From assembly GCA_035527455.1 (NCBI GenBank), contig DATLAN010000080.1:1425-65424 (forward strand): a DNA stretch of 64,000 nt, written 5' to 3'. The notes under the pieces were generated by a model. The model did not search any database. It was given only the letters and a program-made list of their open reading frames with translations, and was not told the DNA's origin. The DNA comes from Thermoguttaceae bacterium. Its GTDB lineage: Bacteria; Planctomycetota; Planctomycetia; Pirellulales; Thermoguttaceae. Below are positions 27,439 through 64,000 of the stretch, piece by piece (position 1 is the first letter of the stretch; each line of letters starts with the position of its first letter). Position numbers and translations under genes: made by a program.

Positions 27439-27547
27439 GTAGGTCAGGGCTTGCCCTGACAAGACTTGGTAGTTTTTGGGCCACCACCGGGCTTGTCCCG
27501 AATGGCAGGTGGTTTGCTCGATTTCGTCAGGGCAAGCCCTGACCTAC
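27439..27547. repeat. REPIN-like element, family D, copy 2
   Basis: GTAGGTCAGGGCTTGCCCTGAC ...65 nt... GTCAGGGCAAGCCCTGACCTAC. Each arm is an 8-bp-stem hairpin (GTCAGGGC-TT-GCCCTGAC). Confidence 0.88.
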
Positions 27548-27577
27548 GTGATTGATGACACCGCGGGAACGGTGCGG

Positions 27578-28291
27578 ATGGAGTTATTTCGCTTTATTTG
27601 GGACAACGTGTTCGTAATGGACACGTTTCACGCCTGCCTGGCGTTGGGCCCGGTGGCCGTTTACCTGTTATTGCTCGGCGCGATCAACCTCTCGCGGCGG
27701 CCGTTTCTGGTATCCGGCACCCGCGACGCGACGGCATTGGGGCTGGCCGTTTCGGGTTTCATGATCGTCGGCCCGATGAAGCTCTTCTTTCCCGACGCGG
27801 CCGCGGCCCATTTCGGGCCGTTCGTGTGGCTGTTGCTGCTGGCGTTCTACGGGCTGTGCCTGGTGCTGGTGTTGTTGCTGTTGCGGCCGCGGCTGGTCAT
27901 CTACAACATCTCGGCCGACCAGTTGCGTCCCATCCTGGCCGAACTGGTCGATCAGCTCGACCCCAACGCCCGGTGGGCCGGCGACATGCTGCTGCTGCCG
28001 GGCCTGGGCGTGCAGTTGCACGTCAACGAGCTGGCTTGGATGCGCAACGTATCGCTTTCTTCGGTGGGCGGAGATCAGAACTACCTCGGCTGGCGGCGTT
28101 TGGAGTTGGCGCTTGGGGCCGCGCTGCGCCGCGTGGAATTCGGCCGCAATCCCCGCGGCATCAGCCTCGTCGCGGCCGGAACGCTGATCGCCGCGGCTCT
28201 GGTCTGGGCCGTCGCCCGCGATCCCCAGGCGGTGGCCGACGCGCTGTTCGACATCGGCGAAGCCGTCTGCAACATGTTCCGGCGGGAGTAG
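27578..28291 (+). CDS. Integral membrane protein, function unknown
   Basis: Trimmed from ORF 27476..28291 (the first 34 codons lie in the repeat) to ATG 27578. Has 4-5 hydrophobic segments. Confidence 0.62.
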   Translation: MELFRFIWDNVFVMDTFHACLALGPVAVYLLLLGAINLSRRPFLVSGTRDATALGLAVSGFMIVGPMKLFFPDAAAAHFGPFVWLLLLAFYGLCLVLVLLLLRPRLVIYNISADQLRPILAELVDQLDPNARWAGDMLLLPGLGVQLHVNELAWMRNVSLSSVGGDQNYLGWRRLELALGAALRRVEFGRNPRGISLVAAGTLIAAALVWAVARDPQAVADALFDIGEAVCNMFRRE

Positions 28292-53798: not shown

Positions 53799-55487
53799 TC
53801 AGCGGGAAAAACCTCGCGGCCCGTAGAAGTAATACGCCTCGCTGTCCTGATAGCCGATTCTCTGTTTGGTCTCGAACATCCCGTAGTCTTGGACTTCCGT
53901 CATGCGGGAAACGATGGGAAAGATCGTGCTGCGGTAGAATTGACGGGGCCGCCCCTCGTAGTAGCCCCGGGTGAAGAAGTCGCAGTCGTTCGGTTCGGTG
54001 ACTTCCATGCCCGGCAGAAACAGCGAGGTCTCGCACGGATCCAGCGGGCGGACGATTTCGGGGCTGACGAGAATCACCAGTTCGGTCTCGTCTCGCTTGA
54101 CGTTTCGTTTGCTGAAGATCGTATCGATCACGGGGATATCGCCCAGGAAGGGCACCCGCAGCTTGCTGCCCGACTGCTGATCCTGTAACAGCCCGGCGAT
54201 GGCCAGCCATTGGCCTTCGCGCAGATCGACCGTGGTGGACACGGCGCGGATGTTCAGTCCGGGAATGCCTCCCACTTCGACGTCCTCGTTGAGCGTGGAG
54301 AAGGAGGGCGACACGTGCAGCCGGATGCGATCCTTGTCGATGATGGTGGGGGTGAACTCCAGCTCGGTGCCGAAGCCCCGGAAGCTGGTCGTGGCGGCGC
54401 CGACGCCGTCGACGCCGACCACCGTGGGTACGGCGAATTCGCCGCCGGCGATGAAGTGGGCCGACTGGCCGTTGAGCGTCACCAGATTCGGTTCGGCCAG
54501 GATCTTCGAATACCCGTTGGAACTCAGTGCCTGGAAGGCCAGCCTCAAGTCTTCTGATTCCAGAATGGCTTGGAAGACTCCCGCCACGCCCAGCGTGGTG
54601 GTGAGGGTGAAGTCTCCGGCCAAAACCCTCAGATCGGCGCCCATCTCTCGCAACGCCGAACGGCTCAGTTCCGCGATGCGCACTTTGAGCATCACTTGCT
54701 GTTCGCCGGGCACGTCGAGCATGCTGATGATCTGCGAGGCGGGCAGGTCGTCGGCGCCGGGGATCGGCAATGCGGCGCGGCCTAAGGTGACGAAGCCTCC
54801 CCCTCCCCCTCCCGCCCAGTTGTTCAAGGTGTTCGCCCCGATCTGCCGGCCCGTCTGATCGACCGCCTGGCCCGCGATCAACGAGAGAATCTCACTGGCT
54901 TCCGCCGAGTCCCTCGCCTGTCCGCGAACGATCAGTTTGTCGGCGATCGGAATCAACTGGACCATGCTATCGGGAAACATCTCGTTGATTCGGTCTTGCA
55001 GCTTCCCGTATTGATCTTCGACGAGCTGTTGGTCGCTCTCGTCGCGGGTTACCTCTACCAGGTAGCGCAAAACCTGGTCGCCGAACCAGAGCGTCAGCGT
55101 CGTTTGGCCCGGTTCCCCTCCGATCAACTCGAACTCCTGGGCGCTGAACTGCACGACCTCCAGCACGTCGGGATCGGTGATCGAGAACTGCCTGACCGGC
55201 TCGTTCGTCCGGATCAGCTTCGATCGCTGCGAGTCGATCTCGATGGATATTTCCGGGTCGAGGATCTCGCGGATCAAGGTGTCGACCTTGGCGCGGGTCT
55301 GAGGAGAAGGATGGGACAGCTCTTCGACGGTGGGTGGACGCTTCCGGGCCGGTTGCTGGGCCAGGGCCGTCACCGAAACCAGCAAGAGGAGCGAATATAC
55401 GACTGCTCTGCGGGCTCTCTTCCAAACGGAATGCCCTTTGGAAGCTCGACCAGGTTGGATCGGCTTCAGCATTGGATAGCAGTACAT
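53799..55487 (-). CDS. cpaC: Tad secretin CpaC/RcpA
   Basis: 562 aa. N-terminal pilus-formation domain (VLEVVQFSAQEFELIGGEPGQTTLTLWF). Secretin C-domain LREGQWLAIAGLLQDQQSGSKLRVPFLGDIPVIDTIFSKRNVKRDETELVILVSPEIV. Confidence 0.9.
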   Translation of the reverse strand: MYCYPMLKPIQPGRASKGHSVWKRARRAVVYSLLLLVSVTALAQQPARKRPPTVEELSHPSPQTRAKVDTLIREILDPEISIEIDSQRSKLIRTNEPVRQFSITDPDVLEVVQFSAQEFELIGGEPGQTTLTLWFGDQVLRYLVEVTRDESDQQLVEDQYGKLQDRINEMFPDSMVQLIPIADKLIVRGQARDSAEASEILSLIAGQAVDQTGRQIGANTLNNWAGGGGGGFVTLGRAALPIPGADDLPASQIISMLDVPGEQQVMLKVRIAELSRSALREMGADLRVLAGDFTLTTTLGVAGVFQAILESEDLRLAFQALSSNGYSKILAEPNLVTLNGQSAHFIAGGEFAVPTVVGVDGVGAATTSFRGFGTELEFTPTIIDKDRIRLHVSPSFSTLNEDVEVGGIPGLNIRAVSTTVDLREGQWLAIAGLLQDQQSGSKLRVPFLGDIPVIDTIFSKRNVKRDETELVILVSPEIVRPLDPCETSLFLPGMEVTEPNDCDFFTRGYYEGRPRQFYRSTIFPIVSRMTEVQDYGMFETKQRIGYQDSEAYYFYGPRGFSR

Positions 55488-56269: not shown

Positions 56270-56872
56270 GTGATCTTGGATCGGCTTTTCTCTTGGGTGC
56301 CATGCGGCACCGGGATACTCGCAAACCCGATGGACGGTTCCGACCAGCAACGCGAAGGCCCGATCGAGATTCCTCTAGTGGGGGATCTGACAGAGAACCA
56401 AAGCGACCTGTGCGAGAAGCTCTTGTCCGTGGAGCCGGGCGGCGAGTGTATTCTGTATATCGATTCCCTCGGCGGCAGCCCCTATTGCGCAATGGCCCTG
56501 ACTTCGCTGATCGTGCTGCGTGGGCTCCGGGCAATCGGGATCGTGGCCGGCGAGTGTTCTTCGGCGGCCCTGTGGCCCTTCGCCGCCTGCCGACGCAGAC
56601 TGGTTACCCCCTATAGCGTTCTTCTGTTTCACCCCATGAAGTGGCAGAGCGAGGAAAATGTCGACCTGGGCGAGGCCGCCGAGTGGGCACGTCATTTCAG
56701 ACAACTCGAGACCGAAATGGACCTGCTGCTGGCCAATCTATTCGGTGTCCCCAACGAAAAGATCCTCGCGTGGGTCCGTCCGGGCCGTTACGTCAGCGGT
56801 CCCGAAATGGCCGAAACCGGCCTGGCCGAATTGATCGAGCTGAAATCGCTGGACTTTCTGGTCCGAGGTTAG
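56270..56872 (+). CDS. Divergent ClpP/S14-fold protein (third paralog, Asp region not conserved)
   Basis: YIDSLGGSPYCAMAL (compare INSPGGS..A.AIYD), GECSSAAL (Ser position), LLFHPMKW (His position). RPGRYVSGPEMAETGL replaces [16 protein letters not shown] start; alternative start at ATG 56330. Confidence 0.65.
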   Translation: MILDRLFSWVPCGTGILANPMDGSDQQREGPIEIPLVGDLTENQSDLCEKLLSVEPGGECILYIDSLGGSPYCAMALTSLIVLRGLRAIGIVAGECSSAALWPFAACRRRLVTPYSVLLFHPMKWQSEENVDLGEAAEWARHFRQLETEMDLLLANLFGVPNEKILAWVRPGRYVSGPEMAETGLAELIELKSLDFLVRG

Positions 56873-56881
56873 TTCGGCCCC

Positions 56882-57628
56882 TCAGTGTTTCGCCAAGGGT
56901 TTTCGCGCCGTAACCAGCGCCCCTTCCGTGCAGGAGGAGGTGCGATAACCGGTCCACCCGTGGAACTTCGCGTCGACGAAGCCCGCATCCGCCAGCATTT
57001 TCAGGAGCGACCGCTCCCAAATCGCGCCGGTGATTCAGTCGGACCAGGTGCCCTTTCTTGACACCTGCTCGGGCGTCACTTCCTCGTGAAGCAGAATATC
57101 CGCCATTCGAAGCCGGCCGCCCGGCCGGAGCACACGGTACACTTCGGAGATGACTGCCGGCTTGTCGACGCAGAGATTCAACACGCCGTTGGAGATGGCC
57201 ACGTCGATGCTGCCGCCGTCCAGCGGAAGATTCGCCACGTCGGCCTGCAAGAACTCGACGTTGTTCACTCCGAGGGACCGGGCATTGTCGCGGGCCTTCT
57301 CGACCATGGCCTCGGTCACGTCCACGCCGACGACTTTGCCCGCCGGTCCCACGCATCGGGCCGCCAGCAGGCAATCCAAGCCGGCGCCGCTGCCCAGATC
57401 CAGCACCCTTTCTCCAGGGCGCAGCTCTCCCAATCCCAGCGGATTGCCCACGCCGCAAAAAGAGTCGGTCACCGAAGAAGGCAATGCGGCCAGCTCATCC
57501 TCGCCGTAGCCGAGAGTTCGAGCGCTGTCCAGGCCGACCGGGAATTTGCTCTCCCGTTCCGGTGTGTCAGCGATCCGAGAGAATCGTTGGCGGACAGCCT
57601 TCTGGATTTCGTCTGGAGATTCGTGCAT
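56882..57628 (-). CDS. ArsM-like SAM-dependent methyltransferase with in-frame UGA (codon 198): candidate selenoprotein, or else a nonsense pseudogene
   Basis: ORF 57035..57628 (197 aa: FCGVGNP, VLDLGSGAGLD, RVLRPGGRL) ends at TGA 57037..57035. The same frame continues for 50 more codons (ITGAIWERSLLKMLADAGFVD..ALVTARKPLAKH) to TGA 56884..56882, with 40/50 G/C-ending codons. Confidence 0.55.
56992..57030 (-). promoter_or_regulatory. SECIS-like stem-loop immediately downstream of the in-frame UGA
   Basis: On the mRNA: lower stem CCGGC/GCUGG, upper 9-bp stem UUUGGGAGC/GCUCCUGAA (two G.U pairs), apical tetraloop GGUC at nt +26..+29 from the U of UGA. Confidence 0.5.
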
Positions 57629-57971
57629 CTCACTTTTCCTTACTCACGGCTGAAGTCCACCCCTTGCGCCAGTATGGCTCTACTCGATTATACCGCCGAT
57701 TGTCAAGAATCGGCAGAACTTCTCGCTTCCTCAACCCGGACATTGGAAGAGCTTTTCCTCGGTCCGTCGAAAATGAAAATCCGATCGCCAATCCAAGAAA
57801 CCACGCAACTTCTCCTTGCTCCAAACGAGGATACGTATCACAGAAACACAAGCCAACATGAATGCGGTCAGCGAGTTCCAAGACCCATCGACACACCGCC
57901 ACCTCCCGGGGCAACACAAGTACCAGCTTTCCGACTCCGATGGCCCCGGCGAGGTGGCGTTTTACCGGGAT

Positions 57972-58000
57972 TTGCGGCCGCGTCCGAGTTCTCGTATAAT
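57972..58000 (+). promoter_or_regulatory. Sigma-70-like promoter candidate for the DUF1598 gene
   Basis: TTGCGG (57972..57977), 17-nt spacer, TATAAT (57995..58000), 80 nt upstream of ATG 58080. Confidence 0.5.
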
Positions 58001-60432: not shown

Positions 60433-60720
60433 ATGATGGAAATGGTGCGGATCATTCAGTGCGACGCGGCCGACTGCGCGTACAACCAGAACAGCCAGTG
60501 CCACGCAATGGCCATTACCGTCGGCGGCGGCATGGACCACAAGTGCGACACCTTCACGACGGGAACCGGCCAAGGCGGCTTCCCCGACGTGATCGGCGGC
60601 GTGGGCGCCTGCAAAGCCGCCTCGTGCAGGCACAACATGAACCTCGAGTGCGAAGCGCCCGGCATCAAAATCGGCCGCGAAGCGGGACTGGTCGACTGCC
60701 TGACGTTCGAACCCGGGTGA
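60433..60720 (+). CDS. DUF1540-domain small Cys-rich protein
   Basis: Two copies of the C-x3-C-x-[YH]-N-x4-C-x-A pattern (CDAADCAYNQNSQCHA, CKAASCRHNMNLECEA). 95 aa. Confidence 0.78.
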   Translation: MMEMVRIIQCDAADCAYNQNSQCHAMAITVGGGMDHKCDTFTTGTGQGGFPDVIGGVGACKAASCRHNMNLECEAPGIKIGREAGLVDCLTFEPG

Positions 60721-62186: not shown

Positions 62187-62428
62187 AGATTGATCCTCGG
62201 TCGATCTCGGGGGGATTCCGGGACGTGGGGGTCCATTATAACAGACCGGGGTGCAGACGCCATCGCGAAGCGTCGACGACCCCCCGCCGCTTGCGGCTTC
62301 GCCCGGTTCGCACATCCCGCGGCCTTCTTCTCGGGAGCACCTGCGATCCGGATTTGACCGGACCGATTGCCGACGTGTTCCGTCACGCGGACCGCCCTGA
62401 TTGGAGCTATCAGCCACCCGCCGGCGGA

Positions 62429-64000
62429 TCAGATGAACAGGTTGACGTTGCCGGCCTCGGCCTGGCCTAAGTACATGGCCACGCCGCCTTCTTCCACGCC
62501 GTCGATGAGTTCTTCGCGGCGGATGCCCATCAGGTCCATGCTCATCGAACAGGCGACCAGACGCACGCCGGCCTCCTGCGCCGTTTGGATCAGCTTGGGC
62601 AACGGATCGACGCCCTTGCTGCGCATGATGCCTTTGATCATCGCCGCGCCCAGCCCGCCCATGTTCATCTTCGAGAGTTTCAGCTTGTTGGGCCCGCGGG
62701 GCATCATCCGGCCGAACATCCGCTCGACGAGGTTCTTCGATACCGACACCTTCTGGTCTTTGCGCAGCACGTTGAGGCCCCAAAACGTGAAGAACATCGT
62801 CACCTTGCTGCCCATGGCGGCGGCTCCGTTGGCGATGATGAAACCGGCCAGCGCCTTGTCCAGGTCGCCACTGAAAACCACGACGGTCTTGTTCTTGGAC
62901 AGCTCGCTCGGGCCGGTCGCCGGGGCGGCGGTGGCGGCGGGGCGGGCCCGCTTGGCGATCGTCGCCCGGCAGGCCCCCTCCTCGGGCACGACGCTCAGGA
63001 GTTGATGCCCGGTGCTTTCGCACCATGCCACCACGTCGTTGGGAAAGCCCGGATCGGCGACCAGAATGCTGACGGCCTGGTTCTCGCCGACGCCTTCCAA
63101 TTCGGCGCGGAGTTGCATGATCGGGCCGGGACACTGCAACCCTCGGGCGTCGATCTCCTTGACGACCTCGGCCGGCGGAGCGTCGGTTTCGGCCGGCTGC
63201 GGAGCCTGCTGGCCGGTATCGTCGGTGACTTCCTTTACTGCCCCGTCGCCGTTGGAGGAAATCGCCCGGGCGGCACGGTAGGTCTTGTAACCGCCGGTCA
63301 GGTTGCGGCAGCGAAAGCCGTGCTGGGTGAGGATCCGGCAGGCGAGATACCCGCGCAGGCCGACCTGGCAGAACGCGAGGATTTCCCTGTCGCGGGGCAG
63401 CTCGTCGAGCCGGTCGCGCAGGTCGTCGAGCGGGACGTTCTTCGCCCCGGGGATGGTGCCCGACTCGAGTTCCTTCACGTCGCGGACGTCCAGCAGCAGT
63501 TGGTCTTCGGCCGGGTCGGTGACATCTTCGACGTGGCAGAGCTTCACCAGCCCGTCGAGCACGTTCGACGCCACCAGCCCGGCGTAATTCACCGGATCCT
63601 TGGCCGAACCATAGGGCGGGGCATAGGAAAGTTCGAGCCGGGCCAGATCGCGGACGGTCAGGCCGGCCTGCAACGCCGTGGCCAGGACGTCGATCCGCTT
63701 GTCGACCCCGTCGGCGCCGACCGCCTGCGTGCCGAGGATCTTGCCGTTGCCCGGATCGAACAGCAGCTTGAGGCTGATTGGCATCGCGCCGGGATAGTAG
63801 CCGGCGTGGCTGGAGGGATGGATGTAGATCTTCTCGTAGGCGGCACCGGCCTGTTTCAACGCCCTTTCGCTCATCCCGGTCATGCCGATCGCCAGATCGA
63901 AGACCTTGCAGATGGCCGTGCCCTGGCTGAAACCATAGACGCTCTCTCCGCCCAGGACGTTGTCGGCGGCGATGCGGCCTTGGCGATTGGCCGGGCCGGC
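62429..64000 (-). CDS. CoA-disulfide/persulfide reductase-like flavoprotein fused to rhodanese, TusA-like and DsrE-like domains (N-terminus beyond window)
   Basis: The frame stays open from 63883 to the window edge (AGPANRQGRIAADNVLGG.. is the pyridine-nucleotide disulfide oxidoreductase core). Rhodanese active site CQVGLR, TusA motif LQCPGPIM, and a DsrE-like tail (VVVFSGDLDKALAGFIIANGAAAMG..LVACSMSMDLMG). Confidence 0.85.
   Translation of the reverse strand, partial: AGPANRQGRIAADNVLGGESVYGFSQGTAICKVFDLAIGMTGMSERALKQAGAAYEKIYIHPSSHAGYYPGAMPISLKLLFDPGNGKILGTQAVGADGVDKRIDVLATALQAGLTVRDLARLELSYAPPYGSAKDPVNYAGLVASNVLDGLVKLCHVEDVTDPAEDQLLLDVRDVKELESGTIPGAKNVPLDDLRDRLDELPRDREILAFCQVGLRGYLACRILTQHGFRCRNLTGGYKTYRAARAISSNGDGAVKEVTDDTGQQAPQPAETDAPPAEVVKEIDARGLQCPGPIMQLRAELEGVGENQAVSILVADPGFPNDVVAWCESTGHQLLSVVPEEGACRATIAKRARPAATAAPATGPSELSKNKTVVVFSGDLDKALAGFIIANGAAAMGSKVTMFFTFWGLNVLRKDQKVSVSKNLVERMFGRMMPRGPNKLKLSKMNMGGLGAAMIKGIMRSKGVDPLPKLIQTAQEAGVRLVACSMSMDLMGIRREELIDGVEEGGVAMYLGQAEAGNVNLFI

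Follow-up and report, generated by a model that had tools for sequence, protein, structure and literature searches.

An in-frame UGA that probably encodes selenocysteine in an ArsM-like methyltransferase gene of a Thermoguttaceae bacterium

Introduction

The canonical arsenite methyltransferases ArsM and AS3MT (CmArsM, PDB 4FR0/4FSD/6CX6; CrArsM, 5EVJ; human AS3MT, 8XT7) share a class I fold with SAM motif I, a reactive residue on the loop of Cys224 and a C-terminal domain of about 120 residues. From the structures of the Rosen laboratory, we take Cys72, Cys174 and Cys224 of CmArsM to be the three conserved As(III)-binding cysteines. As(III) is bound by Cys174 and Cys224, whereas Cys72 is needed for the first methylation. 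Methyltransferase domains that carry selenocysteine (Sec) are also found in the NCBIfam families ArsM_AhpD_UU (NF041537), MTase_UXPK_star (NF047649) and ArsM_DUF2284_UU (NF041536), in which a second domain (AhpD, a UXPK tail or DUF2284, respectively) and a second or third Sec are present; these Sec-ArsM fusion families reportedly originate from Haft and Tolstoy in 2025.

Arsenite S-adenosylmethyltransferase was listed in the GOS selenoproteome in 2008 (PMC2398784), was counted as a selenoprotein in 39 organisms in 2016 (PMC5029168) and appears, with the motif UxxG, among the experimentally supported selenoprotein families in a 2026 review (PMC13188914), where Fomenko et al. 2007 is cited as the source of the family. 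The same review gives a model of the bacterial SECIS element (bSECIS) with an apical loop of 3-9 nt, G in the first two loop positions, usually as G[G/U], an upper stem of 4-16 bp, a distance of 16-37 nt between the UGA and the loop, and a minimum free energy (MFE) of at most -7.5 kcal/mol (PMC13188914 Fig. 2).

In this work, we analyzed a stretch of 64 kb of DNA from a Thermoguttaceae bacterium, hereafter the window, on whose minus strand a UGA codon interrupts a gene for an ArsM-like methyltransferase. We conclude, with a probability of roughly 0.88, that this UGA (57037..57035) encodes Sec at residue 198. As arsenite S-adenosylmethyltransferase selenoproteins have been catalogued since about 2007, the finding is a correct re-discovery of the family in a new, mis-annotated Thermoguttaceae member, and it extends the known use of Sec in an ArsM-like enzyme to Thermoguttaceae and many other Planctomycetota MAGs.

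Results

Gene structure and protein family

The features of the locus are collected in Table 1. A first-pass annotation of the window had described an open frame at 57628..56882 (-) in which the in-frame TGA is followed by 50 open codons, forty of them ending in G or C; coordinates, sequence and codon count were all reproduced (GC3 = 0.80, 40/50). Directly 3' of the in-frame TGA stands ITGAIWERSLLKMLADAGFVDAKFHGWTGYRTSSCTEGALVTARKPLAKH, and the whole 50-codon segment is free of stops and frameshifts until a second TGA (56884..56882) closes the frame. We consider this second TGA the true end of the gene because the opposite strand carries a Clp-protease-like gene whose end, at 56872, is 10 nt away. 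The possibility that the second TGA is another Sec codon was examined and rejected, given that no hairpin with a G-type loop follows it, that the orthologues end there with mixed stop codons, and that the neighbouring gene lies so close.

Table 1 Features of the methyltransferase locus, in window coordinates
Feature	Position	Strand	Remarks and basis
CDS of ArsM-like SAM methyltransferase, probable selenoprotein	56882..57628	-	248 residues, U at residue 198; range includes the terminal TGA (56882-56884); sequence and translation
ATG start codon	57626..57628	-	orthologue N-termini align from residue 1
AAGGA, Shine-Dalgarno-like motif 5' of the ATG	57637-57641	-	putative RBS, from the sequence only
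In-frame UGA, codon 198, probable Sec in the motif W-S-D-U-I-T-G (UxxG)	57035..57037	-	column alignment to ArsM and to related loci
50 codons 3' of the Sec codon (ITGAIWER...ARKPLAKH)	56885..57034	-	dN/dS, identity, model of P0002
SAM-binding motif I, VLDLGSGAGLD, residues 75-85	57374..57406	-	aligns with the same motif in ArsM structures
Gly148 codon at the ArsM Cys174 position (SNGVLNL versus SNCVINL)	57185..57187	-	structure-sequence alignment
Val60 codon at the ArsM Cys72 position (F-C-G-V-G versus F-x-G-C-G)	57449..57451	-	structure-sequence alignment
SECIS core: 9-bp upper stem UUUGGGAGC/GCUCCUGAA and GGUC apical loop	57000..57021	-	MFE fold, orthologues, bSECIS criteria
Extended rod: lower stem CCGGCG (57030-57025) / UGCUGG (56997-56992)	56992..57030	-	predicted, MFE fold

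The public record of this protein stops at the first TGA. A protein search returned HUT09546.1 (P0001), a 197-aa "methyltransferase domain-containing protein" of a Thermoguttaceae MAG that is 100% identical to the product; the identical protein sequence is present on 7 contigs from several assemblies, and more than 100 database homologues with 62-68% identity are all cut at about 197 aa. The conserved domain does not stop there. When Cys was placed at residue 198, Pfam Methyltransf_31 matched residues 70-216 (7.5e-34), running across the UGA to the end of the profile. The best NCBIfam matches were the Sec-ArsM fusion models NF041537, NF047649 and NF041536, which align over residues 5-246 and are covered at model positions of about 10-252; their scores of 240-265 bits are far below the respective cut-offs (460-575) because the second domain is missing. 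The arsenite methyltransferase model NF008823 scored 226.5 bits, under its curated cut-off of 263.

In sequence comparison with solved structures, CrArsM (5evj) was the best match (1.4e-29) and CmArsM was also among the best. In both alignments, U198 coincides with the cysteine of the motif ECL(A/G)GA, that is, Cys224, which agrees with the first-pass reading of the UGA as occupying the conserved-Cys position of ArsM. Within SAM motif I, the columns D77, G79, G81, G83 and D85 are invariant in the homologue alignment. In a confident structural model of P0002, a Cys-containing homologue with 61% identity (pLDDT 86.5, pTM 0.87), the Cys is followed by a helix (205-215) and two long beta strands (218-229 and 234-242). 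The top fold matches were CrArsM (5evj), CmArsM (4fr0/6cx6) and human AS3MT (8xt7), with TM scores of 0.62-0.71 and other class I methyltransferases close behind. With 248 residues, the product of the frame 57628..56882 (-) is a class I SAM-dependent methyltransferase from the ArsM-like lineage, and its fold is closest to ArsM. As the modelled helix and strands, the latter being the last two of the methyltransferase fold, all lie after the Cys, a product stopping at residue 197 is predicted to lack part of the core fold. HUT09546.1 and the more than 100 homologue records that lose this helix and both strands are therefore wrong as they stand; U belongs at their position 198.

Conservation of the UGA codon and of the downstream frame

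A scan of species-representative genomes returned 80 related loci, in 76 of which the motif could be located. The Sec column is TGA in 70 of these 76, a ratio that is not unbiased for the family because the loci were retrieved with a query alignment mostly of the Sec type; TGC occupies it in four (L051, L075, L077 and L079), TGG and GGA in one each, and TAA or TAG in none. The TGA-containing loci belong to Planctomycetota, Nitrospirota, Chloroflexota, Desulfobacterota, Actinomycetota and others, and the full-length database homologues P0002 and P0003 carry Cys at this column. The terminal stops of the related genes are mixed (40 TGA, 15 TAA and 13 TAG), and their position varies between 45 and 58 codons after the Sec column.

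The window gene was also compared with 12 Planctomycete orthologues on both sides of the UGA. The 46 codons after the TGA show 67-85% amino acid identity and dN/dS values of 0.06-0.26, as against 55-70% identity and dN/dS of 0.09-0.27 for the 150 codons upstream. Judged from these codon comparisons, purifying selection acts on the post-TGA codons no less strongly than on those upstream.

These data bear on two rival readings. One of them, a recent nonsense mutation, had been named as the alternative explanation in the first-pass annotation, and may be taken together with a pseudogene, a sequencing error or a natural end at residue 197, as the public annotation would have it. Nevertheless, the same TGA is found in 70 loci of many phyla and is never replaced by TAA or TAG, the codons that follow it are under purifying selection, and truncation would remove the predicted helix and two core strands together with the end of the Pfam domain; this group of explanations is effectively refuted. 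The other reading is that UGA has been reassigned as a sense codon throughout the genome (genetic code 4 or 25). Two database proteins, P0005 and P0007, in which the column is Gly and a long, code 25-like read-through tail follows, would fit it. However, TGA ends 30 of the 66 open frames of at least 350 codons in the window, including the methyltransferase gene itself, and the opposite-strand neighbour begins its 3' end only 10 nt beyond that TGA stop, so that the stop usage of the window refutes reassignment outright. In short, a column that is never TAA or TAG, selection downstream of it and the use of TGA as an ordinary stop exclude the nonsense mutation, the natural end at 197 and the reassigned code.

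Apart from this argument, two observations on individual relatives may be mentioned. At L018 (1569 region; TGG) and L072 (GGA), the Trp and Gly codons are one base away from TGA and a SECIS-like hairpin has been kept, which points to a recent replacement of Sec or to a sequencing error. The sequences of P0005 and P0007 resemble genes called with genetic code 25.

The hairpin 3' of the UGA

In the MFE fold, positions 57021..57013 pair with 57008..57000 to form the upper stem, which is capped by the GGUC loop at 57012..57009. The loop occupies nucleotides 26-29 counted from the U of the UGA, with a spacing of 22 nt between UGA and loop. The hairpin by itself has a calculated energy of -10.7 kcal/mol, which falls to -18.7 kcal/mol when the lower stem is included. 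The hairpin had already been drawn, lower stem included, in the first-pass annotation, which also pointed to a GGUC loop at a similar distance in the E. coli fdhF element; this is accurate, the fdhF UGA being codon 140 and GGUC lying at nt 22-25. With its 4-nt GGUC loop, 9-bp stem, 22-nt spacing and energy of -10.7 kcal/mol, the window element lies within every bound of the bSECIS model. An Rfam search of 56500-58000 (E <= 10) returned neither a SECIS nor any other family.

Only 0.35% of all positions in the window, and 9 of its 1383 TGA trinucleotides, are followed at this spacing by a G[G/U] loop on a stem of 9 bp or more, and the fold of 66 nt has a modest z of -2.3; the element is thus unusual, not decisive by itself. 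In these GC-rich sequences, loci with and without Sec could not be told apart by folding energy, and we used the position of the hairpin, the identity of its loop and covariation in its place. The GGUC loop is invariant, and at the same position, in all Planctomycete-type loci. In an alignment of 28 sequences (27 of them Planctomycete-type orthologues), (i) 87.7% of the cells of the upper helix are paired, (ii) four of its pairs have changed on both sides, for example from GC to AU or from UG to AU, (iii) none of 500 shuffles reached the observed covariation score, and (iv) sliding the 3' partner by 1-3 columns roughly halved the pairing. The lower stem is weakly conserved, with 79% of cells paired, mostly through invariant G-U pairs. 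Over the wider set, 64 of the 71 TGA sites are followed by a hairpin that has 6 bp or more and a G-rich loop beginning 19-28 nt past the codon, versus 18% of the other in-frame codons of the same genes; the loops at the TGA sites are GGUC (23), GGA (18) and GUC (7). In other clades, the amino acids after Sec differ and the stems are entirely different; the hairpin is still placed 3' of the UGA.

Altogether, the tests on homologues and on the hairpin that the first-pass annotation had proposed came out in favor of a selenoprotein: the column holds Cys (TGC) or TGA in the homologues, which continue beyond it, and the orthologues with TGA retain the hairpin.

A stable hairpin could, on the other hand, act without Sec. 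Stable hairpins 3' of stop codons can promote read-through, and a near-cognate tRNA might insert Trp, Cys or Arg at the UGA; the relative with TGG (Trp) at the site would be in line with this. We regard such read-through as very unlikely, since the column is Cys in the homologues without TGA and corresponds to the metal(loid)-binding Cys224 of ArsM, the G[G/U] loop and the spacing of bacterial SECIS elements recur in clades with completely different stems, and the family already has an entry among the known selenoproteins (PMC13188914).

Selenocysteine machinery and other candidates in the window

ARAGORN found no tRNA-Sec in the 64-kb window, where only tRNA-Gly was detected, or in 60 related loci, and tblastn with E. 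coli SelA, SelB and SelD gave no match in the window; over all loci, the sole match of these three queries was a weak, SelD-like one in L033. Sec machinery has been documented in several Planctomycetes (PMC4807772), and it is on these reports, together with the intact SECIS and downstream frame, that we infer Sec decoding in this organism.

The window without Sec machinery would also suit a relic, in which the lineage formerly used Sec, this genome lost Sec decoding or performs it inefficiently, and the UGA mostly terminates translation to give a truncated, inactive protein of 197 residues. Pairwise dN/dS values against distant orthologues record long-term history and are compatible with a recent loss, and the two relatives with a replaced codon still have the hairpin. 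Against a relic stand the intact SECIS of the window, with its perfect 9-bp stem and invariant GGUC loop, the 50 downstream codons with a GC3 of 0.80 and neither stop nor frameshift, and the occurrence of the same protein sequence on 7 contigs of several assemblies. On balance, a relic is unlikely, and we retain a functional Sec codon as the most probable reading of the UGA.

Two scans of the window, one for TGA codons with a hairpin and flanking open frames and the other for TGA codons with coding-like GC3 on both sides, yielded no second selenoprotein gene. Two candidates were rejected: the TGA at 28185 (+) is an off-frame artefact inside a real gene (27476..28291), and the one at 53801 (-) is the stop of a secretin gene followed by a neighbour in the same frame. 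This neighbour is a 217-codon open frame, which corresponds to a separately called 198-aa gene with no Pfam match.

Discussion

The evidence described above is best accommodated by recoding of the UGA during translation by the standard bacterial route. The GGUC-loop hairpin, located 22 nt after the UGA, would bind SelB carrying Sec-tRNA(Sec) and deliver it to the UGA, after which translation would run through 50 codons to the real stop. The element resembles the SECIS of E. coli fdhF in being a stem-loop within the coding sequence right after the UGA and in its GGUC apical loop. It differs in the position of the loop (nt 22-25 in fdhF versus 26-29 here) and in its perfect 9-bp upper stem, where that of fdhF has a bulged U.

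Compared with the arsenite S-adenosylmethyltransferase selenoproteins of the PRK11873/NF008823 type, the window gene shows no difference in kind: it encodes an ArsM-like SAM methyltransferase with U-x-x-G (here U-I-T-G) at the Cys224 position, has Cys-containing homologues and is provided with a bacterial SECIS immediately 3' of the UGA. It is a Thermoguttaceae (Planctomycetota) copy, mis-annotated as 197 aa and scoring below the NF008823 cut-off. Its methyltransferase domain also aligns with the Sec-bearing domain of the three NCBIfam fusion families, whereas their second domain and their second or third Sec are absent here. With the canonical ArsM/AS3MT enzymes, the product shares the class I fold, SAM motif I and a reactive residue on the Cys224 loop; in contrast to them, it has Sec for Cys224, Val for Cys72 and Gly for Cys174, ends at residue 248 without the C-terminal domain, and is encoded outside an ars operon.

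The arrangement of the arsenic-binding residues deserves further attention. Of the three As(III)-binding positions, the window protein fills that of Cys224 alone, with Sec, as Cys72 corresponds to Val60 and Cys174 to Gly148; a non-conserved cysteine, Cys58, lies two residues upstream of Val60. The same holds for the Sec forms examined here: in all 70 TGA loci, Gly stands at the Cys174 position and the cysteine of GCG is missing, with F[C/A]G[V/T]G at the Cys72 motif. The canonical Cys-type loci L075, L077 and L079 carry SNCV together with GCG, and L051 represents the Sec-type subfamily with Cys in place of Sec. The first-pass annotation had noted the replacement of the second As(III)-binding cysteine by Gly (SNGVLNL) and had cautioned that the substrate may not be arsenite. 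The replacement is borne out, and the caution is reinforced by its presence in all 70 Sec forms and by the absence of the Cys72 cysteine.

The label "arsenite" is doubtful for these proteins because two of the three As-binding cysteines are missing. Since As(III) is held by Cys174 and Cys224 and the first methylation depends on Cys72, canonical binding of free arsenite is improbable at a site that has only one selenol. The selenol of Sec198 would lie on a flexible loop, the one on which ArsM has its As(III)-binding Cys224, and may serve there as a soft ligand or nucleophile at the methyl-acceptor site, and with Val at the Cys72 position and Gly at that of Cys174 the acceptor may therefore differ from free arsenite. 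It could still be an arsenical, or another soft species. It is tempting to speculate that the Sec-type "ArsM" clade, which is widespread in Planctomycetota, Nitrospirota, Chloroflexota and other phyla, does not consist of arsenite methyltransferases at all and comprises single-selenol methyltransferases with a different soft acceptor, a proposal that we put forward tentatively and consider somewhat less probable than its opposite; selenium or tellurium species, an already methylated or thiol-conjugated arsenical, and a thiol are candidate acceptors. If it is true, the "arsenite methyltransferase" label in the selenoprotein catalogues is a homology artefact. In the papers on the family consulted here, we found no mention of a systematic absence of the partner cysteines in the Sec forms. 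The point is only mildly new, and the loci came from a Sec-rich query; the consistent loss of the partner cysteines nevertheless offers a concrete and cheaply testable hypothesis on what this clade methylates.

The genomic neighbourhood gives few leads. The methyltransferase gene stands alone, flanked by two genes that both lie on the opposite strand, the Clp-protease-like gene and a DUF1598 gene, and no ars operon context (arsR, acr3/arsB, arsC and similar) was found around it. Within 10 kb, the sole arsenic-related item is an ArsR-type HTH gene about 5 kb away, beside a CoA-disulfide-reductase/rhodanese fusion. Clustering of the neighbourhoods of 71 loci revealed no conserved operon partner applicable to the window. 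The only recurrent neighbour is a LysR regulator gene, directly upstream on the same strand in 13 Planctomycete loci (L006, L007, L015-L017, L019-L025) and in L032, and absent in the window.

Some of the related loci have features of their own. In two Planctomycete MAGs (L006:3801-4790 and L016:6592-7518), the open frame of the Sec methyltransferase continues for 308-330 codons past the Sec codon into a membrane domain matching Pfam NnrU (2.8e-07), apparently as a natural fusion. A paralogous ArsM-like methyltransferase gene adjoins the Sec gene at L032:7279-7908; its open frame ends with "...CLEDWFR" at the point of the Sec column, and it is therefore probably another TGA-interrupted selenoprotein gene. 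The loci L060 and L072 resemble the NCBIfam Sec-ArsM fusion proteins.

Within the window, the ArsR-type HTH gene and the adjacent fusion protein of 851 aa lie about 5 kb upstream of the methyltransferase gene, at ~62428-64000 (-), running off the end of the window. The fusion combines pyridine-nucleotide disulfide reductase, rhodanese, TusA and DsrE domains and was called without interruption; relatives of these domain families include known selenoproteins. On its other side, the methyltransferase locus adjoins a Tad/type II secretion-like cluster, extending from 53799-55487 (-) to ~47000, with a secretin, two T2SSF proteins, T2SSE, a TadE-like protein and a TPR protein. Finally, a small Cys-rich DUF1540 protein of 94-95 aa is encoded at 60433-60720 (+), between the DUF1598 gene and a gene for a PQQ-repeat protein.
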